A stretch of 10,098 nt of DNA from Candidatus Woesearchaeota archaeon (GCA_964573185.1 CAZNIQ010000025.1:1-10098), one strand, 5' to 3'. Positions 1-8,495 are shown, numbered from the stretch's first letter. Numbers and translations: made by a program. Notes: a model not told the origin generated them from the sequence alone.

Positions 1-1338
1 TATTCGGTCGTAGATTATTCCATTTTCAACATATTTTTCTTTAAATTCTTCAAATGTTTCAAAGTATTCTGAAATTCTTGTCTCTAAAATGTTTTCATAT
101 ACAGCCCTTTCAATTAATCTTTGATTTACATTTAGCATTTCCGCAATTTCTTTAACAGATTTTCTTGGATATAACCCTATTGCAACCAACTTGGCTTCTT
201 TTCTTTCTTCTCTATTTACAATTTTTCTTCTTAAATATTCTGCTACGACTAAACCTTCTCTTTGTTTTAAAGAATAAGCATATCCTATTTCTGTCAAGAA
301 TTTATAAACATCCTTTTCAGATTTCAGGTATAATCTATACATTACTTTTCCATCATATTCTTTCACTTTGTATATTTCAGATTCTATTCCAAATTCTTTC
401 AATATTTCTTTTATTTCTTCTAAGAATTTAACTAAGTTTTCTTCTAATTCTTTTACTTTTACAAATGTTAAACTTATCTGTAAAGCTGTTTTACCTTTAA
501 CTATTGGCTTTGAACCGTCTGAACCAAATAAACCTGCTAAGAAATTTGCTTTAACCCATTTTGGGCTTTCCTTTAACCATTCTGGTATTCTGAATTCTGC
601 TTTTGTTTTCTCACCAACAGGAGCTCCCAATTTAATTAATAATAATGCAAAAGCTTTTGAGGTAATCTTAATAGAATATTCTTTTCCTTCAGTTTCATAT
701 TCATAACCCCAAGGAGATTTTATCTTTATTTTTCTTTTCCTTTCATAAATTCTTGAAGCTTTAATACTTAATTTTTCTAGATCTCTTCTTAATTCTTCCA
801 ATCCTTCCTTTTCACCGTAGAACCAAACAATATATCTTTCTCTCTTCTTCCCTCTCTCTTCTGTTATTATTCTAGTTATGCATCCATCTCCAATTAGATA
901 ACCTAAAATTCTAGCAAGGATTCCAATTCTTAAATCATTTGATTTCAAAGGTAACAATTTTCTTTCTTTAAGATACTTAATTATTTGTGGGTCATATCTT
1001 TCGAAATCTTTTTCAGTTAAAATTACTTTTTCTTTTGGTTTTTCAAACTCAACACCTTCAAATGGGTAAACAGCTATATACTCTCCTACTTTTAGTTCTT
1101 TAGCTAATTTCCATCCTTCTTTTGTTAAAACTGGATGATCAAAAGATAATTCTAGTTCCCTTCCAGTTTCTGTTTTTATCTTTATTATGAACTCGTCAGA
1201 GGGTCTTTCAGATATAAATAAAATTCTGCTTCTCTTTTCCTTTGTTCTTAACTCTACTTCATTTAATAAAGGTATTAAATCTTTTATTTTAATTCTAAAA
1301 CCTAAATCCGTTAGTACTTCGGTATTTCCAGGCAAGCA
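1..1338 (-). mobile_element. Intein with LAGLIDADG homing-endonuclease domain, inserted in RtcB directly after GFDIN; C-terminal splice junction is outside the window
   Basis: After extein ...GGIGFDIN the sequence continues [14 protein letters not shown] (Cys1 codon 1338..1336, intein block A-like). This is followed by [12 protein letters not shown] (block B-like, TxxH type). Two LAGLIDADG motifs follow: [15 protein letters not shown] (about 883..903) and [14 protein letters not shown] (about 511..543). ENGIIYDRI at the window edge resembles block F. The RtcB motif would normally continue GFDINCGVR. Confidence 0.85.
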
Positions 1339-1626
1339 ATTAATATCAAAGCCTATTCCGCCAGGAGTAATTATTCCTTCATTTAAATCAAAAGCAGCAA
1401 CACCTCCAATTGGAAAACCATAACCTTGGTGTCCATCGGGCATTACGATCATCCATTTTTGAATACCCGGTAATGTAGCAACATTTCTTGCTTGTTCTAA
1501 CGTTTTATCTTCTTGCATTTTCTTAAGTAGTATTTCTGAAGCATATATTCTTGCAGGAACTCTCATTGGGGGCTCTTTTGGTATTTCCCAAATAAGATCA
1601 GAAACTTTTCTCAGCTTAATGTACAT
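1..1626 (-). CDS. rtcB: RNA-splicing ligase RtcB, N-terminal part interrupted by an intein; the rest of the gene lies beyond the left window edge
   Basis: Manual minus-strand translation from ATG 1626..1624 stays open to base 1 (542 codons). It is absent from the ORF track because it runs off the edge. The N-terminus [31 protein letters not shown]...[31 protein letters not shown]...PGGIGFDIN carries the conserved RtcB motifs (PDxHxGYGxPIGG, GGIGFDIN followed by Cys). Confidence 0.9.
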
Positions 1627-1656
1627 AAAAATAACTATGTTATAAACTTTTTAAAG
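1627..1656. promoter_or_regulatory. 30-bp divergent promoter spacer between rtcB (minus) and the methyltransferase fusion gene (plus)
   Basis: The spacer is entirely A/T-rich. The plus-strand ATAAAAATA (about 1625..1633) is centred about 27 nt upstream of ATG 1657. The minus-strand CTTTAAAAAG (complement of about 1648..1657) is centred about 26 nt upstream of ATG 1626. This spacing fits archaeal TATA boxes and leaderless transcripts. No BRE or TSS can be verified. Confidence 0.35.
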
Positions 1657-1704
1657 ATGAGGAGGGGCACACTCTCTGAGAATGATGAGAGGAGCGAGAG
1701 CCGA
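1657..1704 (+). ncRNA. Candidate box C/D sRNA-like element with degenerate terminal boxes, coincident with codons 1-16 of the downstream CDS
   Basis: Layout is ATGAGGA (C, 1 mismatch to RUGAUGA), 12 nt GGGGCACACTCT, CTGA (D', 1676..1679), GAA, TGATGA (C', 1683..1688), 12 nt GAGGAGCGAGAG, CCGA (D variant, 1701..1704). The 12/3/12 spacing is canonical and the internal boxes are perfect, but both terminal boxes are imperfect. The segment is locally GC-rich relative to its surroundings. Confidence 0.4.
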
Positions 1705-2847
1705 ATACTTCTTGTTCGTAAAATAAAAGATAAGGAAGCGTACCCACCAAAAGAAGACTCCTTCTTATTACAAAAATATGTTAAAATTTTTGCTAAAGGA
1801 ATAGTTTTGGATATTGGCACTGGTACTGGAATTCAAGCAATAACAGCAGCTTTAAAATCTAACGTCAAAAGAGTAATAGCCTCTGATATTGATAAAGATG
1901 CATTGATTATTGCAAAGTTTAATTCTGAGCTAAATGGAGTTTATGAAAAGATAATTTTTGTCCAATCCAACTTATTCGAAAGAATTCCAAAAATAAAATA
2001 TGATACTATTATTTTTAATCCCCCATATTTACCTGAGGAAGGAGTAGAGGATTATAAAACAAAACTTTGGACGGTTGGAGGTGAGGAAGGAAATGAACTT
2101 ATCTTAAGGTTTTTAGAAGAAGCTTGGAAATATTTATATAAAAATGGCATTATTCTTTTAGTTTTTTCATCTTTAAGCAATCCTAAAAAGATATTATCTT
2201 TTGCAGAAGAATTAGGATATTCATATAAGCTTTTAGAATCTAAAAGATTTTTCTTTGAAGAAATCTATGTTTACTTATTCAGCAGGTCTCATGATCATCA
2301 TCTTTCAGCACAGGAAACGTTCATCACCGAAGGTTGGCATTCTCATATTTATTTAACAGATAGAAATACTATTATAAAAAAGTTTAAAGAAAATTTAAGG
2401 TTAAACTATGAAAAGGAAAAATATTTTTTATTAAAGCTAAAGGATTTCGATTTTACTCCAAAGATTATAGATTTTGATGATAGCGAAATGAAAATAGAAA
2501 TGGAATATATTAAAGGAAAAACATTGAAGGAAGTTATTAAAAAAGGAAAGTTAACTGTCGATTTAATTAAGGATATTTTGGAGATTTGTTACACGCTAGA
2601 TAAATTGAGAATAGATAAAGGGGAGATGAATAGACCATGGGAACATATAATAATTTCAGATAGAATTGTCTTTATTGATTGGGAGAGAGCTAAAGAAACT
2701 AGAAAGCCTTCTAATGTAACAAATTTTCTACAGTTCTTACATAAAATTAAATTTATTGATATAACAAAAATAAAAGATATTTTAAGGAAATATAAGAAAA
2801 CCTATGATAGAAAGTATATTTTAGAGATAATCAGAAATCTAGGATAA
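1657..2847 (+). CDS. Fusion protein: N-terminal HemK/Mtq2-type (archaeal HemK-related) SAM-dependent methyltransferase plus C-terminal divergent Bud32/RIO-like kinase-fold domain
   Basis: The methyltransferase part (aa ~27-208) has YPPKEDSFLL, VLDIGTGTGIQAI (SAM motif I) and IIFNPPYLP (NPPY, codons 121-124 at 2017..2028), and ends ...FFFEEIYVYLFS like stand-alone archaeal HemK-related proteins. The C-terminal part (aa ~225-396) has GWHSHIYL...TIIKKF, KIEMEYIKGKTLKEVI, RIDKGEMNRPWEHIII and VFIDWE. These align by eye to the Bud32 elements (G-loop, VIIK, MEYIxG, HxDLxxxN, DFG) but with substituted catalytic residues. Confidence 0.75.
   Translation: MRRGTLSENDERSESRILLVRKIKDKEAYPPKEDSFLLQKYVKIFAKGIVLDIGTGTGIQAITAALKSNVKRVIASDIDKDALIIAKFNSELNGVYEKIIFVQSNLFERIPKIKYDTIIFNPPYLPEEGVEDYKTKLWTVGGEEGNELILRFLEEAWKYLYKNGIILLVFSSLSNPKKILSFAEELGYSYKLLESKRFFFEEIYVYLFSRSHDHHLSAQETFITEGWHSHIYLTDRNTIIKKFKENLRLNYEKEKYFLLKLKDFDFTPKIIDFDDSEMKIEMEYIKGKTLKEVIKKGKLTVDLIKDILEICYTLDKLRIDKGEMNRPWEHIIISDRIVFIDWERAKETRKPSNVTNFLQFLHKIKFIDITKIKDILRKYKKTYDRKYILEIIRNLG
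2279..2327 (-). ncRNA. Box C/D sRNA, antisense to and fully inside the fusion CDS at its domain junction
   Basis: Minus-strand layout is GTGATGA (C, 2327..2321), 12 nt ACGTTTCCTGTG, CTGA (D', 2308..2305), AAGA, TGATGA (C', 2300..2295), 12 nt TCATGAGACCTG, CTGA (D, 2282..2279). All four boxes are perfect, both guides are exactly 12 nt, and the segment is a local GC island. Confidence 0.8.
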
Positions 2848-3651
2848 TTTTTCTAGTACTTCTTTTGCAATTTCTTTTATCTTTTCATCTTTTACATTTT
2901 CTAAAATATATTCCCAAACATTTTTTGAAAAATTATAATTAACCAAAATCTTAAGTAAACAATCGTAATACTTTTTATATTTTTGGTATTTTTCACTTTC
3001 TTTTTCTGGTATACTTAAAAGTTTATTTTTGATCTGCTCATATAATTTAAATCCTAGTTTTACGTCTAGTAATCCATTTGGAACAAACAAATCTATTAAT
3101 ACTTCCTCAAAATCTGGAGGTAAGTTAATTTCGTTATAGTCAAATAATATATGCAACAGTTCATGTAGAAATCCGGAAAACTTTTCTTCAACACTTCGTC
3201 TTTCGTTTTTACCAGCTGATTGGAAAATTATATATCTGTCCTTATATACAAGTGCACTTCCAAAAGATATCGTAGGAGAAAGATTATAAACTAAGTAAAC
3301 TTCTACTTCATTAGGGAATTTCTTTATCAAAAAAGTTTCCTTAATTATTTCTAAAGCTTCTTCTATTTTTTCATTATAAAAGCCTTCAAATTTATTTTTC
3401 AATTCTATCAATTCTTCCTTTATTTCCTCAAACCATTCAATTTTATAATCTACTTTTATCTTTTTATCAAGAATTCCTAATAAAAATTCCTTTCCTTTTC
3501 CCTCTAAACATTTAGAACGAAATGTATATACCAACTTTGCTAATTTAAAATCTAGGAATTGAAAAAATAAAGGATCTAGATTTATAATATGTGATCTATA
3601 TAATAATGAAGCCAATTGTGCTTCTTTAGAGACAACTACCTTTACTTTCAT
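2839..3651 (-). CDS. Hypothetical protein with HExxH motif (possible zinc metallopeptidase-like)
   Basis: Intact 270-aa ORF with coding-like K/E/I-rich composition. It contains a single HELLH motif (aa 163-167, 3151..3165) in the context FSGFLHELLHILFDYNE. I recognise no other family signature. The 3' end overlaps the convergent fusion CDS by 9 nt. Confidence 0.6.
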   Translation of the reverse strand: MKVKVVVSKEAQLASLLYRSHIINLDPLFFQFLDFKLAKLVYTFRSKCLEGKGKEFLLGILDKKIKVDYKIEWFEEIKEELIELKNKFEGFYNEKIEEALEIIKETFLIKKFPNEVEVYLVYNLSPTISFGSALVYKDRYIIFQSAGKNERRSVEEKFSGFLHELLHILFDYNEINLPPDFEEVLIDLFVPNGLLDVKLGFKLYEQIKNKLLSIPEKESEKYQKYKKYYDCLLKILVNYNFSKNVWEYILENVKDEKIKEIAKEVLEKLS

Positions 3652-3689
3652 TAAAATTTATCGAAAATTTCATTGTTTATAAATTTTGT

Positions 3690-3738
3690 TCAGGAGCTTA
3701 GAGGCTCATCAATAATCAGCTCCGCCTGAAATCATCAT
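3690..3738 (-). ncRNA. Box C/D sRNA (intergenic)
   Basis: Minus-strand layout is ATGATGA (C, 3738..3732), 12 nt TTTCAGGCGGAG, CTGA (D', 3719..3716), TTAT, TGATGA (C', 3711..3706), 12 nt GCCTCTAAGCTC, CTGA (D, 3693..3690). The flanks (AUUUUAA 5' and ACAAAAU 3') can form a short terminal stem. It is the GC-rich island of an otherwise A/T intergenic region. Confidence 0.85.
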
Positions 3739-3766
3739 TTAAAATTATTTTTATATTTAATTTTAA
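3739..3766. promoter_or_regulatory. 28-bp divergent promoter spacer between the C/D sRNA (minus) and tatD (plus)
   Basis: Plus-strand TTTAAAAT (about 3739..3746) is centred about 25 nt upstream of the tatD ATG 3767. Minus-strand TTTAAAA (complement of about 3760..3766) is centred about 25 nt upstream of the C box at 3738. The TATA-like elements are interleaved; this is inference only. Confidence 0.35.
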
Positions 3767-4522
3767 ATGCTTGTAGACACACATTCGCATATCTTTTTTT
3801 ATAAAGAGAAAGTTGATGATGTAATAAAAGAATGTAAGGAAAAAGGAGTTAAATACATTGTTGAAAATGGTTTGAATGTAGAAACTAATAGAATTGTTTT
3901 AAATGAAGCTAAAAAATATGATATTGTTCTAGCAGCCTTAGGATTTCATCCAGTGGATATCTCAAAGGAAAAAGAAGATATTATTGAAAAAGAAATAGAA
4001 TTCATTAAAGAAAATAAGGATAAGATTGTTGCCATAGGAGAAGTTGGATTGGATTATTACTGGGTAAAAGAAAAAGATCTACAAGAGAAGCAGAAAAAAT
4101 ATTTATATAAATTTATTGAACTAGCAGAAGATATTAAAAAACCTTTGATAGTCCATTCTAGAAATTCTGAAAAAGACATTATAGATATTCTAAGCACAAC
4201 AAAAGCAAAAGTTATTTTACATAGTTATATGGGGAGGATTTCTTATGCTAAAAAAGCTATTGATTTTGGATTTTATTTTTCTGTCCCATCTGTAGTTTAC
4301 AAAAGAAAAGATTTGCACAGATTAATAGAGGAAATTCCTTTAGAGTTAATTTTAACTGAAACAGACTCTCCTTTTTTAGATCCAGTAGGTTACAGAAATA
4401 ATAAGCCATGGAAAGTAATTTACGGTTTAGAAACAATTACTAAAATAAAAAAAGTTGATTTAGAAGAATTAAAGGCAATAATAATTAGAAATTTTGAGAA
4501 AGTATTTCAAGTAAAAGTTTAG
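3767..4522 (+). CDS. tatD: TatD-family metal-dependent hydrolase/DNase
   Basis: N-terminal MLVDTHSHIFF (DxHxH metal site), GEVGLDYYW, PLIVHSR, VILHSY and LTETDSPFL match the TatD/amidohydrolase signature order. Intact 251-aa ORF. Confidence 0.88.
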   Translation: MLVDTHSHIFFYKEKVDDVIKECKEKGVKYIVENGLNVETNRIVLNEAKKYDIVLAALGFHPVDISKEKEDIIEKEIEFIKENKDKIVAIGEVGLDYYWVKEKDLQEKQKKYLYKFIELAEDIKKPLIVHSRNSEKDIIDILSTTKAKVILHSYMGRISYAKKAIDFGFYFSVPSVVYKRKDLHRLIEEIPLELILTETDSPFLDPVGYRNNKPWKVIYGLETITKIKKVDLEELKAIIIRNFEKVFQVKV

Positions 4523-5042
4523 AATTTAATACCTCTGGATGAAAAGTGAAACCATAAATCTCTCTGTTTTTTACCTTAAAAATCGCTGGTTCATCTTTAA
4601 CATATCCTAAAATTTCAAAATTTTCGCTTAAAACAGGATACCTCACTATTAAAAAATAAGCTCTAAATTTGCCAAAAATAGAATTTACATCATAAACTCC
4701 AATAAATCCTTTTTTCTTTAGTTTACCCCCAAATGTTAATGCTATTATTTGAGATCCTGCACCTACTCCTATCACTTTCTTATTCGTATTTTTAATCCAT
4801 TTGAACTTATCTAAATAGTTTAAATATTCAAAATCTTTAATAGCAGTTCCAGATAAAATAATTACATCCTCTTTCGGTTCTTTCTCCAATTCTTTATAAT
4901 GAATTACTTTAACATTTCCTTTTTCTTTAAAAATGTCTACTAAAGGTCCTACAAACTCTTCTTCATGCAACTTATATTTACATAAAGAAATTATCAGGAT
5001 CGAGAGTCCCTCATCATTTTCAGAGTGGGATAACGTCATCAT
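4485..5042 (-). CDS. Class-I glutamine amidotransferase-like protein (GuaA subunit A-like fold) lacking the nucleophile cysteine
   Basis: ILIISL (beta-1-like), VIILSG, VIGVGAGSQIIALTFGG in place of the GxCxGxQ nucleophile elbow, and YGFTFHPEV (His/Glu of the triad). The only canonical in-frame starts are ATG 5042 or 5039, both inside the C box of the overlapping sRNA. Confidence 0.65.
   Translation of the reverse strand: MMTLSHSENDEGLSILIISLCKYKLHEEEFVGPLVDIFKEKGNVKVIHYKELEKEPKEDVIILSGTAIKDFEYLNYLDKFKWIKNTNKKVIGVGAGSQIIALTFGGKLKKKGFIGVYDVNSIFGKFRAYFLIVRYPVLSENFEILGYVKDEPAIFKVKNREIYGFTFHPEVLNSKLLLEILSQNF
4994..5042 (-). ncRNA. Box C/D sRNA coincident with codons 1-17 of the GATase-like CDS
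   Basis: Minus-strand layout is ATGATGA (C, 5042..5036), 12 nt CGTTATCCCACT, CTGA (D', 5023..5020), AAA, TGATGA (C', 5016..5011), 13 nt GGGACTCTCGATC, CTGA (D, 4997..4994). All four boxes are perfect and the segment is a GC-rich island. A TATA-like ATTTTTAAA (complement of 5067..5075) sits about 29 nt upstream of the C box. Confidence 0.8.
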
Positions 5043-5080
5043 TAAGATTTTAAATTTTGTTTAGAATTTAAAAATTAGAT
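5043..5080. promoter_or_regulatory. 38-bp divergent promoter spacer between the sRNA/GATase-like unit (minus) and tRNA-Gln (plus)
   Basis: Plus-strand TTTTAAAT (5048..5055) is centred about 29 nt upstream of tRNA position 1 (5081). Minus-strand ATTTTTAAA (5075..5067) is centred about 29 nt upstream of the C box/ATG at 5042. The symmetric spacing fits archaeal TATA boxes; unverified. Confidence 0.4.
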
Positions 5081-5116
5081 AGCCCCGTCGTCTAGCGGCC
5101 AAGGATGCGGGGTACC

Positions 5117-6169
5117 ATGGCGGCCGACCCCTTCCAACTTCTTTATTCCACAGTTAAACATTTGGAAAAGGAAATGAATGTTTCTTTAGATGAAGTAGCT
5201 GTCACCTATCCTCATTCAGAGATTTCGCGAGAATTTGTTAGAAGACTGCGTAGAAGATTCAAAATCAGAATAAAAGGAGAAGGAACTTTCCATACAACTG
5301 GAAGATTATTAGGATTGGCATTAACAGATGCAAATTTAAGATCTGCATTAAGTGGCTACTTTATAGTTGGAACGACCAGAATGGAAACATTTGAAATTTA
5401 TAAGAAACTTTTTAAAGACATAGTTCTTTTTACAGATTATCCTAGATATATAAATGGCAATCCATTATTACCTCTTTACATGTTGTCTAAAGACAAAACC
5501 TCTGTTAAAAAAGAAAGTATAAATAAGCTTAAAATGCTGCTAACGGACAATTTAGATATTTTTGAGGAAAAAGGGATCTTTGATTTTATAGCAAGCTGTG
5601 TAGATTTTGACGGAGAAGTACATGGCAGAACATTTGTTATTTATAGAAAAGAAAATAGCAGGAAGGGGCAAATATTATCTAAACTTTTCTTATTTTTTGA
5701 AGAAATTGGCATATTAAAAATCACAAATTATGGTTTAAATACATGGAAAGATAGAATATCATTCAAAGTTTCTGCAAAGTATATACGAAATATAATGTTA
5801 TTGCATCCTAATAAAAGGATTGCTTCAGATATTTCAATTCCAAGTATAGTTTTTACAAAAGAAGAACTAGAATGCCTTAGGAAATACCTAAAAGAGGTTA
5901 AATTAATTAAACAAAAGTATGCATACAAATATCTTCTATTATTTAATGATATAAAGGCGGCACAACTGTTAAAAGATAAAGGATTTAAAATAAGTATCTT
6001 TGGTAAAAATATTGCAAAATATTTTGGAGATAAAGCATTACTTCTAGCAATTTTAGATATTATCGGATTTAATATAAAGAACCTGATTCCTCCGTATAAA
6101 TATCCGAGTAGAATATACGAACTTTTGGATAAAGTTGAATATATAAAAAGCCATATAAAGGTTAAATGA
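5117..6169 (+). CDS. Intron-encoded two-motif LAGLIDADG homing endonuclease with a C-terminal extension of about 140 aa
   Basis: Motif 1 is RLLGLALTDANL (LLGLALTDA at 5306..5332). Motif 2 is FDFIASCVDFDGEV (IASCVDFDG at 5588..5614). They lie about 95 aa apart, as in single-chain LAGLIDADG enzymes. The start is set at ATG 5117, the first ATG inside the intron. The track start 5105 lies in the tRNA exon, and ATG 5174 is an alternative. Stop TGA is at 6167..6169, 10 nt before the clamp. Confidence 0.8.
   Translation: MAADPFQLLYSTVKHLEKEMNVSLDEVAVTYPHSEISREFVRRLRRRFKIRIKGEGTFHTTGRLLGLALTDANLRSALSGYFIVGTTRMETFEIYKKLFKDIVLFTDYPRYINGNPLLPLYMLSKDKTSVKKESINKLKMLLTDNLDIFEEKGIFDFIASCVDFDGEVHGRTFVIYRKENSRKGQILSKLFLFFEEIGILKITNYGLNTWKDRISFKVSAKYIRNIMLLHPNKRIASDISIPSIVFTKEELECLRKYLKEVKLIKQKYAYKYLLLFNDIKAAQLLKDKGFKISIFGKNIAKYFGDKALLLAILDIIGFNIKNLIPPYKYPSRIYELLDKVEYIKSHIKVK
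5119..5133 (+). repeat. 5' arm of a 15-bp perfect inverted repeat (GC clamp) closing the intron
   Basis: GGCGGCCGACCCCTT is the exact reverse complement of 6179..6193. Confidence 0.95.
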
Positions 6170-6178
6170 AAAAATGTA

Positions 6179-6193
6179 AAGGGGTCGGCCGCC
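6179..6193 (+). repeat. 3' arm of a 15-bp perfect inverted repeat (GC clamp) closing the intron
   Basis: AAGGGGTCGGCCGCC is the exact reverse complement of 5119..5133. Confidence 0.95.
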
Positions 6194-6239
6194 GGGCCCG
6201 AGTTTGGTCCCCGTGACCGGGGTTCGAATCCCCGCGGGG

Positions 6240-8495
6240 CTAGTAAACTTTAACTTCTATTTCAGTTCCCTTTCTATATAAATAATAGCTTTTTGCAGCA
6301 GCTTCTTTAAAAATTTCATCATGTGTACAAATAATTAATTGGAAATTCTCCAAAGATTTTAAAGTTTCTGCAAGTTTCCTTCTTATTCTTTCATCTAAAG
6401 ATTCTGTAGGCTCATCTAATAATAGAAAGCCTATATTTTTTGATAACAGATTTATTAATGCAAATCTAAAAGCCAAGTCTAAAGCTACTATTTGGCCTCC
6501 AGATAGGGACGCTTCTTCCAAAGGTAAAACAACATCCCTCTCACCAATTTTCTTCTTTACATATATTTTATAAACAAAATCTTTCCTTCCCCTTTCAACT
6601 CTTATCTCAACACTTTCAATATCATCATATATGTAAATCCTCTTAAACCAATAATTTAGATAAATAGTTAATCTTTTGGCAACTTCATCTCTTACCCTTA
6701 TCTTTATTTTTTGGAATACAGTAGCAAGCTTGCTTATTATATTTACAAATTTTTCTAACTCTTCGATGTACTTCTTAAGTTTTTCAACATATTCTTTCTT
6801 CTCTTTTAAGTATTTCAAGAATTTTATATCTATTTTAGGTAAGCTTTCCAGTTCATCTTCAACTTCCTTTATTTTCCTTTCTATTTCTTCTAATTCTATA
6901 CCATACCTCTTAACGATTTCTTTTAATTCCTCTAACTCTTTTATTTTTTCTTTCATCTTAAAGATCCTATATCTTTGAATTTCCAAATCTCTTAACTCTT
7001 TTTCTAATCTACTTTTAGTTTCTTCCAATTCTTTTACACTTCTCTCAATCTCTTTCTTCTTCAAATAACTTAAAGCAGAATATACTTTTTCATAGATCAA
7101 AATTTCGTTTAATTCTTTCTCAAAGTTTTCCTTTATTCTTTCTAATTCTTCTATTTTATCAGTACCAAATTCCTCTAAGGCAAAGTTTAAATAATATTTT
7201 CTTTTATTATAAATCTCTCTCTTCTCTTCTAACTCTTTTTCTAAATTTAAGATTTCTCTTTTTATTTGTAAATCTCTTTTTTTCAACTCTTCTAACTCTT
7301 TTACCTTTTCTTCTAATAATTTTTTTGGATTTTCAATTCTTGAACCACACACAGGACATTTCGGTTCCTTTACTTTTTCTAGTATCTCTATGAGTTTTTG
7401 AATATCCTTTATCTTAACATTTAATTCCCTCAACTCTTCTTTTTTCTTTTCTAATTTTTCTTCTAATTCTTTTATATCCTCTTCTTTTATATTCGGTAGC
7501 TCTTTCAAATTCTTTATAATTCTCTCTATTTGTTTTATTTTATTTAAAATTAAGGACTTTCTTGAGGTATCTACCTTTATTTTCTTTACCGTTTCCTCCA
7601 GCTCTTCTATTTTCTTATCTAAGAACTCTTTAAAATCATCCGTTAAAATATCATACTTTGCACTTTCTTCTTTCAATTCTAATATTATATTTTCAACTTC
7701 TCTTAACTCTTCTTTAATTTTACTATATTTTTCATTAATTTCTTTTTCTTTTTTCAACAACTCCTCATCGATTTCCCTCTTCAAATATTTATATCTTATA
7801 TTTATCCTTTCTAACTCTTTTAATTGTCTCTCCAATTCTTCCCTTCTTTTAGCTAATTCTTCTAGTTTTCCAATATCCTCTCCAAAGTACTTTTGTATAG
7901 AAGCGCTTTCTCTTGTATATTCGGATTTTGCTCTTAGTAATTCTTTTCTTAAATCCTCTAGAGCTTTGCTTAAGGTATCTGCAATCTCTGTAAATTTTTT
8001 CAAATCTAATAATTCTTCTAATTCTTCTGAAAAAGTTTTCTTTCCAGAGCCTAAAACCAAAGATCCTAAAGTTCTTTGTCTAATGAATATAACATTTACA
8101 GCCTTATCTAAATCTTTTACTTTGAGTAAATTTTCTAATACATATCTAGTTATAGTTTCATTTCCAGATGCAACCACTTTTCCATTTTTTCTTATAATAC
8201 CATTTCCAGAAGGAACTTCTCTTATAATTTCATATATATTTTCATTATCCTGTAAAACAACTGTAACTTTTCCTAGAGAACTTCCTCTTCTGACTAAATT
8301 TTCTTTTCTTCCACCTTTTTCGTAAGAAGTTAAAGCTTGAGAGCCAAATAAAGCATAAATTATACCTAATAATATAGATGTTTTACCGGTTCCGTTTTCG
8401 CCTAAAATCAAAGTAACTTTATCATCAAAATCTATTGCTAAGTTTTTATGAATTCTAAAATTTTCTAATACTACTTTTTTTAATTTAACTACCAT
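6240..8495 (-). CDS. rad50: DNA double-strand break repair ATPase Rad50
   Basis: Walker A GENGTGKTS is near the N-terminus. A long E/K-rich coiled coil carries a central zinc hook, KEPKCPVCGS (CPVC at 7358..7347, aa 380-383). The ABC signature SLSGGQ, Walker B LLLDEPT and H-loop ICTHD are at the C-terminus. The start overlaps the mre11 stop by 7 nt. Confidence 0.93.
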   Translation of the reverse strand: MVVKLKKVVLENFRIHKNLAIDFDDKVTLILGENGTGKTSILLGIIYALFGSQALTSYEKGGRKENLVRRGSSLGKVTVVLQDNENIYEIIREVPSGNGIIRKNGKVVASGNETITRYVLENLLKVKDLDKAVNVIFIRQRTLGSLVLGSGKKTFSEELEELLDLKKFTEIADTLSKALEDLRKELLRAKSEYTRESASIQKYFGEDIGKLEELAKRREELERQLKELERINIRYKYLKREIDEELLKKEKEINEKYSKIKEELREVENIILELKEESAKYDILTDDFKEFLDKKIEELEETVKKIKVDTSRKSLILNKIKQIERIIKNLKELPNIKEEDIKELEEKLEKKKEELRELNVKIKDIQKLIEILEKVKEPKCPVCGSRIENPKKLLEEKVKELEELKKRDLQIKREILNLEKELEEKREIYNKRKYYLNFALEEFGTDKIEELERIKENFEKELNEILIYEKVYSALSYLKKKEIERSVKELEETKSRLEKELRDLEIQRYRIFKMKEKIKELEELKEIVKRYGIELEEIERKIKEVEDELESLPKIDIKFLKYLKEKKEYVEKLKKYIEELEKFVNIISKLATVFQKIKIRVRDEVAKRLTIYLNYWFKRIYIYDDIESVEIRVERGRKDFVYKIYVKKKIGERDVVLPLEEASLSGGQIVALDLAFRFALINLLSKNIGFLLLDEPTESLDERIRRKLAETLKSLENFQLIICTHDEIFKEAAAKSYYLYRKGTEIEVKVY

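Follow-up and report, generated by a model that had tools for sequence, protein, structure and literature searches.

Four putative box C/D sRNA genes on gene borders of a compact nanoarchaeal genome

A group of four C/D box elements lies between positions 1657 and 5042 of a contig of a Candidatus Woesearchaeota archaeon (GCA_964573185.1, CAZNIQ010000025.1:1-10098). The whole stretch of 10,098 nucleotides is referred to here as the window, and each element is named by the first coordinate given in Table 1. [quoted passage not shown] L7Ae (PF01248, 105 bits), Nop5 (PF01798, 216 bits) and fibrillarin (PF01269, 309 bits) are all encoded in this genome. The elements are interspersed with genes for RtcB, a methyltransferase-kinase fusion, a protein with no family match, a TatD-family hydrolase, a GATase-like protein and a tRNA.

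Table 1. Genes, sRNA elements and promoter-like sequences at the locus
Feature	Position	Strand	Remarks
Divergent promoter spacer, 30 nt	1626..1656		Between RtcB and the 1657 sRNA/ORF
Box A-like TAAAAATA	1626-1633	+	About 30 nt upstream of the 1657 C box
Palindromic TTTAAA	1650-1655		29 nt before the RtcB ATG (1626-1624, -)
Variant C/D box sRNA gene (1657)	1657..1704	+	AUGAGGA-12-CUGA-3-UGAUGA-12-CCGA; guide/linker/guide 12/3/12; C AUGAGGA 1657-1663, D' CUGA 1676-1679, C' AUGAUGA 1682-1688, D CCGA 1701-1704; codons 1-16 of ORF 1657-2847
ORF, 396 aa	1657..2847	+	Fusion of a HemK2/Mtq2-type methyltransferase with a Bud32-like kinase domain (weak match)
Canonical C/D box sRNA gene (2279)	2279..2327	-	GUGAUGA-12-CUGA-4-UGAUGA-12-CUGA; 12/4/12
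Coding strand of the 2279 element	2279-2327	+	Encodes SRSHDHHLSAQETFIT within the interdomain linker of ORF 1657-2847
Box A-like TTAAATAA	2349..2356	-	22-29 nt upstream of the 2279-2327 C box; within kinase codons IYLT
ORF, 270 aa	2839..3651	-	No family match; missing at the corresponding place in a close relative
Box A TTTATAAA of ORF 2839-3651	3676..3683	-	32 nt before the ORF ATG, 7 nt past the 3690-3738 D box
Canonical C/D box sRNA gene (3690)	3690..3738	-	AUGAUGA-12-CUGA-4-UGAUGA-12-CUGA; 12/4/12; inside the divergent spacer of ORF 2839-3651 and TatD
Box A TTAAAA of the 3690 sRNA	3761..3766	-	Abuts the TatD ATG at 3767
TatD-family hydrolase gene	3767..4522	+	
ORF, 185 aa, GATase class I-like	4485..5042	-	Nucleophile Cys replaced by Gly (codon 4761-4763)
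Canonical C/D box sRNA gene (4994)	4994..5042	-	AUGAUGA-12-CUGA-3-UGAUGA-13-CUGA; 12/3/13; codons 1-16 of the GATase-like ORF
Divergent spacer, 38 nt	5043..5080		Two TTTAAA boxes
TTTAAA	5049-5054		32 nt upstream of the tRNA gene, whose 5' end is at 5081
TTTAAA	5067-5072		30 nt upstream of the 4994 C box

The boxes of 2279, 3690 and 4994 are perfect and would allow a terminal C/D k-turn. The element 1657 is a variant that keeps the tandem G.A pairs, its AUGAGGA/CCGA pair deviating from the consensus at the 3b:3n position only. D' and C' boxes, guides of about 12 nt and a linker of 3-4 nt are present in all four. A sequence profile trained on 20 sRNAs encoded on other contigs of this genome returned precisely these four elements as full-length matches, with E-values of 4.6e-9 (2279), 1.1e-8 (3690), 1.3e-8 (4994) and 3.1e-5 (1657); the next-best match had E = 0.55. 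The C/D matches in Rfam, in contrast, all fell below the gathering thresholds (snoPyro_CD at 29.9, 22.5 and 21.3 bits, sR33 at 18.3 bits), as chance motif matches devoid of RNA function would. The probability of such matches is nevertheless negligible: 83 motifs are found in the genome against 0.3 per genome expected from block shuffles, profile E-values reach down to 5e-9, and a relative has orthologues of three of the four, conserved in a manner specific to the boxes.

All four elements proposed by the first-pass annotation are thus present, and its description of their surroundings holds. In 1657 and 4994 the element opens with the first ATG of an ORF; 3690 stops 38 nt 5' of an ATG, and 2279 falls where the methyltransferase half of ORF 1657-2847 meets its kinase-like half. 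They form local GC-rich islands, with 45-56% G+C against a mean of 28% (97.5th-99th percentile of 48-nt windows), and none of the seven remaining TGATGA words in the window has a CTGA at 9-15 nt.

A box A-like hexamer starting at -33 to -26 was found for 47 of the 83 sRNAs of the genome (57%), all four elements of the window among them, compared with 9/83 in a control window. The share with a suitably spaced box A rises to 72% among the sRNAs that face a divergent gene, and the same signal occurs at -31 to -26 of ORF ATGs. Each of the four elements has its own TTTAAA-type box A, so that its transcription most likely starts 1-3 nt before the RUGAUGA. The earlier suggestion that the sRNAs share promoters and 5' ends with mRNAs applies to part of the set. 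It fails for 3690, where the downstream gene has a box A separate from that of the sRNA, and for 2279, which is antisense within a coding sequence and has a private box A. Sharing is, however, predicted for 1657 and 4994: each has a single box A, some 30 nt 5' of the C box, and the space would not hold another promoter.

The C/D motif occurs 45 times in exact form in the 594-kb genome, and the figure of 83 allows up to two box mismatches. Thirty-five of these elements are fully intergenic, 27 lie on a stop codon, about 10 on a sense start and 11 are internal. The genome-wide scan bears out non-random placement, but not a preference for start codons specifically, as stop codons are touched more often (27 versus about 10). 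An sRNA usually stands at a set distance of 25-38 nt from a start codon, or one promoter length: 27-36 nt to a divergent ATG and 25-38 nt from the D box to an ATG on the same strand. [quoted passage not shown] The density of four elements in 3.4 kb has a Poisson P of about 0.0015 for a region chosen post hoc. This density is high, yet not unique: sRNA genes cluster across the whole genome (variance/mean 2.6 in 10-kb bins), and eight of them fall within 3.4 kb on contig C1.

The best overall explanation, with a probability of roughly 80%, is that all four are true box C/D sRNA genes of the archaeal type, part of a guide set of about 83 members in a nanoarchaeal genome of 0.6 Mb. Transcription would be directed by a box A some 30 nt 5' of each C box. 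Extreme compactness of the genome, together with leaderless transcripts, probably accounts for most of the placement at gene borders. Adjacent units would then stand about one promoter length apart (25-38 nt to the start codon), their box A elements crossing in divergent spacers, or would have a few bases in common with a neighbouring stop codon. At 1657 and 4994 the overlap is deeper: with the C-box AUG as the sole usable start of the downstream ORF, a single primary transcript would either be bound by L7Ae, Nop5 and fibrillarin and trimmed to an sRNA of roughly 50 nt, or be translated from its 5'-terminal AUG, the sRNA then encoding the first 16 residues. The boxes, spacing, promoters, start codons and conservation come directly from sequence and comparison, whereas transcript ends, RNP assembly, translation of the overlap and competition of these two fates are inferred.

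The target search was made against the rRNAs of relatives, as the assembly of this genome lacks its own rRNA genes. Perfect complementarity of at least 10 nt was found for 49 of 166 guides, compared with 6.1 expected from shuffled guides. Among the eight guides of the window, the best matches to the relatives' rRNAs are those of the D' guides of 1657 (10 nt, in the 23S rRNA of a relative), 2279 and 4994 (9 nt each); the other five reach 8 nt at most. No tRNA target of at least 8 nt was found for the eight guides, and no guide orthologues of the four sRNAs were found in 20 other genomes of the order.

Both 2279 and 3690 have counterparts in the close relative L072. The 2279 element is identical at 48 of 49 positions, whereas the flanking coding sequence is 85-86% identical (P = 0.0045); third codon positions within the element are identical in 15/16 cases, compared with 70-74% in the flanks. 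The orthologue of 3690 (11175-11223 in L072) differs by one base per guide but is placed antisense to the last part of the fusion gene, over its 3' end. Which genes adjoin the 3690 sRNA and the GATase gene varies even among close relatives, as it might if C/D sRNA genes were mobile or recombinogenic and marked sites of gene shuffling. [quoted passage not shown] In relatives of family f2, moreover, the halves of the fusion are separate genes and Mtq2 directly adjoins TatD, whereas here a 1.5-kb block (the kinase half and ORF 2839-3651) lies between them, flanked by the 2279 and 3690 sRNAs. An origin of the arrangement at rearrangement borders is nonetheless improbable. The Mtq2-kinase fusion is widespread among DPANN archaea and therefore old, so that the split state of f2 is derived; the linker holding the sRNA is no longer than the linkers of other fusions; and breakpoints are necessarily intergenic, where sRNAs reside anyway. 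The 2279 sRNA is best described as a probable antisense gene, independently transcribed, in the variable linker of an old fusion.

The elements 1657 and 4994 show a different arrangement, a 5' sense overlap of category 1 in the scheme of Lui et al. 2018 by strand, by the start codon inside the sRNA and by the position of that start relative to conservation. No canonical in-frame start (ATG, GTG or TTG) is present between codon 1 and codon 51 of ORF 1657-2847, and none between the C box and codon 25 of the GATase-like ORF, where the next start falls after the first beta-strand (ILIISL). At both loci the sRNA and the mRNA are predicted to share one 5' end, because no canonical start other than the AUG of the C box would keep the conserved N-terminal parts of the Mtq2-kinase and GATase-like proteins intact. 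Because the start is this AUG, the whole sRNA would be coding and the mRNA leaderless. About nine ORFs of the genome have their start codon within a C or C' box, and the C-box AUG itself is used by four sRNAs genome-wide, two of them in this window. In the relatives L049 and L073/L074, the same gene families begin inside C or C' boxes of different sRNAs.

The same arrangement could be an artefact of ORF calling, in which translation really begins farther on and each sRNA is just an ordinary gene of its own within the leader. ORF starts would be pulled into an upstream sense sRNA because AUGAUGA holds two ATGs and the rule "first ATG after a stop" is applied. Geometry alone leaves the C-box frame open in 19/83 sRNAs, and homologue alignments begin only at residue 13-17 (GATase) or 15-28 (Mtq2), the first 14 residues of the GATase-like ORF having no counterpart in homologues. 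This explanation is quite unlikely, as there is no ATG, GTG or TTG before the conserved cores and an A/T-rich promoter cannot fit in a G+C-rich sRNA, so that the mRNA would begin at the sRNA start anyway. The D box of 1657 also escapes an in-frame UGA by different bases in two lineages: it is CCGA here and CAGA in L072, and neither gives the stop that CUGA would.

The L072 orthologue of 1657 has AUGAAGA as its C box, and its D' and C' boxes are conserved. The 3b:3n position of the k-turn changes as a pair, being G-C in this genome and A.A in L072. This position covaries across the sRNAs of the genome (Fisher 1e-21), among which G-C is rare (two cases). The guides have diverged, with 9/12 differences in the D' guide and 4/12 in the other, and the 1657 sRNA may for this reason have ceased to guide methylation. 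Conserved boxes, a coordinated 3b:3n pair and a D' guide only 3/12 identical, compared with 70% at third codon positions (P = 0.0017), suggest that 1657, and perhaps 4994, could be kept mainly as an L7Ae-binding k-turn/k-loop that tunes or represses translation of a leaderless mRNA, guiding being lost or secondary. There is precedent in the repression of translation by L7Ae via 5' k-turns (PMC5539422), in guides overlapping the 5' ends of coding sequences that mostly lack targets (PMC6009581), and in the reduced expression of downstream genes after 5' overlap (Tripp 2017, as reported in PMC7994747). This regulatory role is still considered unlikely. The D' guide of 1657 has the 10-nt 23S rRNA match given above, and guide turnover is normal for working C/D sRNAs too. 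The broader proposal that k-turn modules act as general 5' signals is not supported, because about 10 of roughly 700 ORFs carry one.

A possible, though doubtful, extension of the preferred reading makes the 1657 and 4994 transcripts true dual-purpose RNAs. A complete C/D sRNA would then occupy the first 48 nt of each leaderless mRNA, and translation would initiate at the C-box AUG. Every molecule would meet one of the two fates described above, capture and trimming to a guide RNA or translation, and reading frame and k-turn would co-evolve. If so, the output of Mtq2, a translation-factor methyltransferase, would be coupled to the C/D RNP capacity of the cell, and CCGA or CAGA in place of CUGA would avoid the in-frame stop, box C changing to match. 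The case for dual use at 4994 is weakened by the loss of the nucleophile Cys from the GATase-like ORF, which may be in decay. A leaderless mRNA with a complete C/D sRNA at its 5' end may be a form undescribed in the literature examined.

The overall idea that sRNA genes share gene ends is already published (PMC3491384, PMC6009581, PMC7994747). L7Ae bound to a 5' k-turn of an mRNA lowers translation (Daume et al. 2017, mBio 8:e00730-17, PMC5539422), which is the mechanism implied by the earlier regulatory idea. That system has a simple k-turn in the 5' UTR masking the Shine-Dalgarno sequence, whereas here a complete predicted C/D sRNA would contain the start codon of a leaderless mRNA. Tripp et al. 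2017 (Mol Microbiol 103:151, as cited in PMC7994747 and PMC5539422) are reported to have found sRNA genes overlapping the 5' ends of ORFs in 7% and the 3' ends in 25% of cases, promoter "hijacking", stop codons within box motifs and k-turn-dependent maturation of archaeal C/D sRNAs. According to the account in PMC7994747, 5' overlap reduces expression of the downstream gene, and pseudogenes may be the outcome, in keeping with the Cys-to-Gly change in the GATase of this locus; TATA-like motifs are given there for only 20% of sRNA genes, whereas an independent box A is the rule in the present genome. In Pyrobaculum (Lui et al. 2018, NAR 46:5678, PMC6009581), the C' box or the D guide, rather than the C box, supplies the start codon, and category 4 comprises antisense sRNAs wholly within coding sequences; these are found close to 3' ends, unlike 2279, which occupies a linker in the middle of a protein. 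Nanoarchaeum equitans (Randau 2012, Genome Biol 13:R63, PMC3491384) belongs to the same archaeal order, and no guide orthologues of the four sRNAs were found in its genome. It shares the compact design of 12-nt guides and a 3-4-nt linker with no terminal stem, and the TTTAAA box A promoter about 26 nt before the start, but has 26-27 sRNAs, most of them with no obvious promoter, compared with about 83 candidates here, 57% of which have a box A. The four elements are further instances of an arrangement known from Nanoarchaeum and Pyrobaculum.

The four C/D box elements reported in the window by the first-pass annotation are borne out by their box pattern and by a genome-derived profile. The genome (G000) is 594 kb in 37 contigs, with 30% G+C and 89% completeness, and the window is the entire 10.1-kb contig C25. 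Twenty exact sRNAs of G000, all located on contigs other than C25, were used to make a sequence profile, and the window was searched with it without filters. Exactly these four elements were recovered (E = 4.6e-9, 1.1e-8, 1.3e-8 and 3.1e-5), and the next match had E = 0.55. Rfam also gave C/D matches on the window, all sub-threshold. As had been noted, the elements are G+C islands (45-56% vs 28%), and all seven other TGATGA words of the window are without a CTGA at the right distance. The C/D pattern has 45 exact occurrences in G000 and 83 when as many as two box mismatches are allowed, as against 0.3 matches in block shuffles preserving local composition. G000 encodes fibrillarin, Nop5 and L7Ae. 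The four elements are predicted to be new cases of an already known kind of guide-RNA gene, and the gain for annotation is four unannotated guide-RNA genes in the window and about 83 genome-wide in a poorly known nanoarchaeal lineage.

Features of the window, with coordinates on the forward strand
Feature	Position	Strand	Remarks
RtcB with LAGLIDADG intein	1-1626	-	intein PF14528, PF14890; gene runs past contig end
Box A-like TAAAAATA	1626-1633		about 30 nt upstream of the C box at 1657
Variant C/D box sRNA gene	1657-1704	+	D' and C' canonical; C = AUGAGGA, D = CCGA
Mtq2-type methyltransferase fused to weak Bud32-like kinase	1657-2847	+	396 aa
C/D box sRNA gene, exact	2279-2327	-	GUGAUGA-12-CUGA-4-UGAUGA-12-CUGA
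Box A-like TTAAATAA	2349-2356		own box A of the 2279 sRNA, within IYLT codons
ORF of no known identity	2839-3651	-	270 aa
Box A TTTATAAA	3676-3683		own box A of ORF 2839-3651, 32 nt before its ATG
C/D box sRNA gene, exact	3690-3738	-	AUGAUGA-12-CUGA-4-UGAUGA-12-CUGA
Box A of the 3690 sRNA	3761-3766		abuts the TatD ATG
TatD	3767-4522	+
Class I GATase-like ORF	4485-5042	-
C/D box sRNA gene, exact	4994-5042	-	AUGAUGA-12-CUGA-3-UGAUGA-13-CUGA
TTTAAA	5067-5072		30 nt upstream of the C box of 4994-5042
tRNA gene	5081-6242		split by an intron of about 1.1 kb carrying a 354-aa ORF
Rad50/Mre11-like genes			in the window

The ends of the tRNA intron are paired by a 13-bp G+C helix (5119-5131/6181-6193). 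ARAGORN, run on the whole window, did not detect this tRNA because of the 1.1-kb intron.

The mismatched candidates are non-random, as their box variants are paired. Among the C/D candidates of G000, an altered U in C or C' (UGAAGA, UGAGGA) accompanies an altered U in D or D' (CAGA, CCGA, CGGA). With the two positions left free, the pairs counted were U/U in 122 cases, A/A in 17 and other combinations in 15 (Fisher P = 1e-21), and a U in C with a non-U in D was found in zero cases across all candidates. UGAAGA occurs with CAGA in about 11% of the C/D and C'/D' pairs, and G-C, A.G and G.U are rarer. In the established k-turn geometry, the covarying positions correspond to the 3b:3n pair, next after the tandem G.A pairs. 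Element 1657, with G in C and C in D, fits this pattern.

The placement of the sRNA genes was classified against 708 ORFs called by a simple longest-ORF rule (95% coding). Among the 83 elements, 35 are fully intergenic, 27 overlap a stop codon, about 10 overlap a start codon in sense and one in antisense, and 11 are internal to an ORF. Placement is far from random, since 88% of random 50-nt segments of G000 would fall inside ORFs. A specific preference for start codons was rejected, because stop codons are touched more often. Spacing in G000 is narrow, with 27-36 nt between an sRNA and the ATG of a divergent gene, 25-38 nt between the D box and a same-strand ATG, and 0 nt to a convergent stop codon in 11 cases. 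The sRNA genes are clustered (variance/mean 2.6). The density of the window is high but not isolated; the densest cluster, on contig C1 at about 14.0-17.5 kb, holds eight C/D candidates in 3.4 kb, several of them abutting without a spacer.

Most C/D sRNA genes in G000 seem to have their own minimal promoter. A TTTAAA-like hexamer begins at -31 to -28 of RUGAUGA, and the same signal is found at -31 to -26 of ORF ATGs. A fixed motif set was present at -33 to -26 of 47/83 sRNAs, compared with 9/83 in a control window, and the box A signal precedes 326 of 701 ORFs (71 in the control window). A box A at -33 to -26 was found for 36 of the 50 sRNAs that face a divergent gene, and for all four in the window. 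In nanoarchaea, box A (TTTAAA) was mapped 26-27 nt upstream of transcription starts (Randau 2012; PMC3491384), which together with the box A positions in G000 would imply leaderless mRNAs and sRNA starts 1-3 nt before the C box. The median gap between divergently oriented genes in G000 is 39 nt. The window spacers 1627-1656 and 5043-5080 contain two box A elements each, and each of these adjoins one start and is about 30 nt away from the start on the opposite side. The simplest reading would be that sRNA genes are minimal transcription units like others, with spacers squeezed to one promoter length. The observation of the first-pass annotation is confirmed, and its proposal that sRNA genes share promoters and 5' ends with mRNAs is partly supported. 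It would hold for 1657 and 4994, where the C-box AUG is the start and a box A lies about 30 nt upstream, and not for 3690, where sRNA and downstream ORF have separate box A elements, or for 2279, which is antisense with a box A of its own.

The order-level comparison genomes lie outside the family of G000 and are tiny (0.4-0.8 Mb); one is a 0.5-Mb single-contig, Nanoarchaeum-like genome. The 16S rRNA 3' ends read ...GGATCTAGTTAA in family f2 of these relatives (L051, L053-L056) and ...GGATCACCTCCT in the Nanoarchaeum-like genome (L052). The anti-Shine-Dalgarno sequence seems to be absent from the f2 16S rRNA, which would fit leaderless translation.

The ATG of the Mtq2-kinase ORF is the C-box AUG of element 1657, and no further ATG, GTG or TTG occurs in frame before codon 51, within the methyltransferase core. 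Homologues align from residue 15-28. Order-level relatives have their own N-terminal extension of about 22 residues ahead of the YPPxEDS motif, and a protein started at 1657 would thus be of normal length. In the close relative GCA_054017035.1 (protein 87% identical), an orthologous element occupies the same position. Identity is 12/13 over D' box, linker and C' box, 6/7 in the C box and 3/4 in the D box, as against 3/12 in the D' guide, 8/12 in the D guide and 85-86% in the remaining gene. The guides are turning over, the divergence of the D' guide being significant even against the third-position rate (P = 0.0017). The D' guide of G000 has a 10-nt match to the 23S rRNA of one relative, which is suggestive only. 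The C box and the D box each differ at one base, and these two bases are the partners of the 3b:3n pair (AUGAAGA/CAGA in the relative, AUGAGGA/CCGA in G000). A canonical CUGA D box would create an in-frame UGA, which both lineages avoid using different bases. These comparisons argue that boxes and RNA structure are under selection together with the frame, a clean comparative case of mutual constraint between coding region and RNA gene. The C-box frame kept open by unusual geometry was rejected as a sign of translation, since the argument is circular (ORFs are callable only in open frames) and only the orthologue comparison counts. In one f2 genome (L049), the start of Mtq2 lies within the C' box of a further sRNA.

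Element 2279, on the antisense strand, sits precisely where Mtq2 homology gives way to kinase homology. Stand-alone f2 kinases begin MKKIDEGWHS, and the G000 frame reads ...SAQETFITEGWHS without a start codon. The sRNA was rejected as the creator of the fusion, which is widespread in DPANN archaea (hundreds of proteins, 355-425 aa in length, match over 84-93% of the query) and whose linker is not lengthened in G000. The linkers of other DPANN fusions are as long or longer, so the sRNA occupies a variable linker. The element is 48/49 identical in the close relative, the only change being in the D'-C' linker, whereas the flanking coding sequence is 85-86% identical (P = 0.0045). Third codon positions over the element are 15/16 identical, compared with 70-74% in the flanks (P = 0.038). 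This conservation is the signature of a second, RNA-level constraint, with synonymous sites frozen over an antisense sRNA so that coding region and RNA gene would constrain each other.

At element 3690 no shared 5' end is needed, because the downstream ORF 2839-3651 has its own box A. In the close relative, the orthologous sRNA has a single changed base in each guide and is placed antisense over the 3' end of the fusion gene, the last residues of which, EDHHSSASPEIIIK, are the sRNA reverse complement. ORF 2839-3651 is absent at the corresponding place there. The link of this sRNA to a CDS start is therefore not conserved. The segment between the 2279 and 3690 sRNAs looks inserted relative to f2, where Mtq2 and TatD adjoin, but as the Mtq2-kinase fusion is ancient the polarity is more likely the reverse; we give little weight to the reading of the C/D sRNAs as mobile.

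The GATase-like ORF has the N-terminus MMTLSHSENDEGLS-ILIISLCKYK. In its four closest homologues the start precedes I(T/L)IISLCKYK by 1-8 residues, and the alignments of all relatives begin only at residue 13-17. No canonical start was found between the C box and the first beta-strand, and the protein, if made with this strand, would start at the C-box AUG. The sRNA-start arrangement is not conserved among relatives. The gene of the close relative (MYITIISL; L075) has no sRNA there, in a relative 76% identical (L073/L074) it takes its start codon from another sRNA, in the C' box AUGAGGA, and in f2 an sRNA is on its 3' side. On the metagenome contigs L073/L074, the gene is flanked by four C/D sRNA genes, a back-to-back pair per side. 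In G000 alone the nucleophile Cys of G-x-C-x-G is Gly (codon 4761-4763(-); GVGAGSQ vs GICAG[AS]Q in the four closest homologues). The change may reflect a decaying or repurposed gene or a single-base assembly error. Possibly an sRNA captured the 5' end and function is being lost in the gene behind it.

For about nine ORFs of G000, the one canonical start near the 5' end falls within a sense sRNA; it is part of the C box in four of them and of the C' box in five. All ORFs starting at a C-box AUG (C1 13997-14046(-), contig C7 17049-17097(+), and 1657 and 5042 in the window) share an '(S/A)ENDE' peptide. This peptide is simply the D' box, A-rich linker and C' box read in frame, and flags sRNA-derived N-termini. 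This is a warning for annotation, since what is called an ORF start, a stop or an 'N-terminal extension' in such genomes is often box C/D sequence. No rRNA genes are present in the G000 assembly, and guide targets were therefore scored on rRNA sequences from relatives. On these, real and shuffled guides could not be told apart by an ungapped 12-mer score; contiguous Watson-Crick runs told them apart at family level, not decisively for the eight guides of the window. No guide orthologues were found in 21 genomes of the order with up to two mismatches, and the few pattern matches were coding sequence.

The general phenomenon has already been published, from sRNAs overlapping the ends of coding sequences and boxes that contain start or stop codons to L7Ae on mRNAs, and no new question is opened. 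Most C/D sRNAs of N. equitans overlap mRNAs, several of them methyltransferase genes (Randau 2012; PMC3491384). The overlap categories defined by Lui et al. 2018 (PMC6009581) cover 5' sense overlaps whose start codon lies in the C' box or the D guide, target loss in the guides that overlap, stop codons in the C box, and antisense sRNAs internal to a CDS. Repression of translation by L7Ae through 5' k-turns was shown by Daume et al. 2017 (PMC5539422). For six model archaea, the survey of Tripp et al. 2017, as summarised in PMC7994747, gives 7% 5' overlaps, 25% 3' overlaps, TATA-like motifs in only 20% and reduced expression downstream of 5' overlaps; decay of a gene behind a 5'-overlapping sRNA is an outcome foreseen there. 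The G000 case is of the same kind and differs in degree: sRNA genes of G000 as a rule have their own promoters, the start may be the C-box AUG of a predicted leaderless transcript, so that the whole sRNA would be coding, and one antisense sRNA lies in a mid-protein linker.
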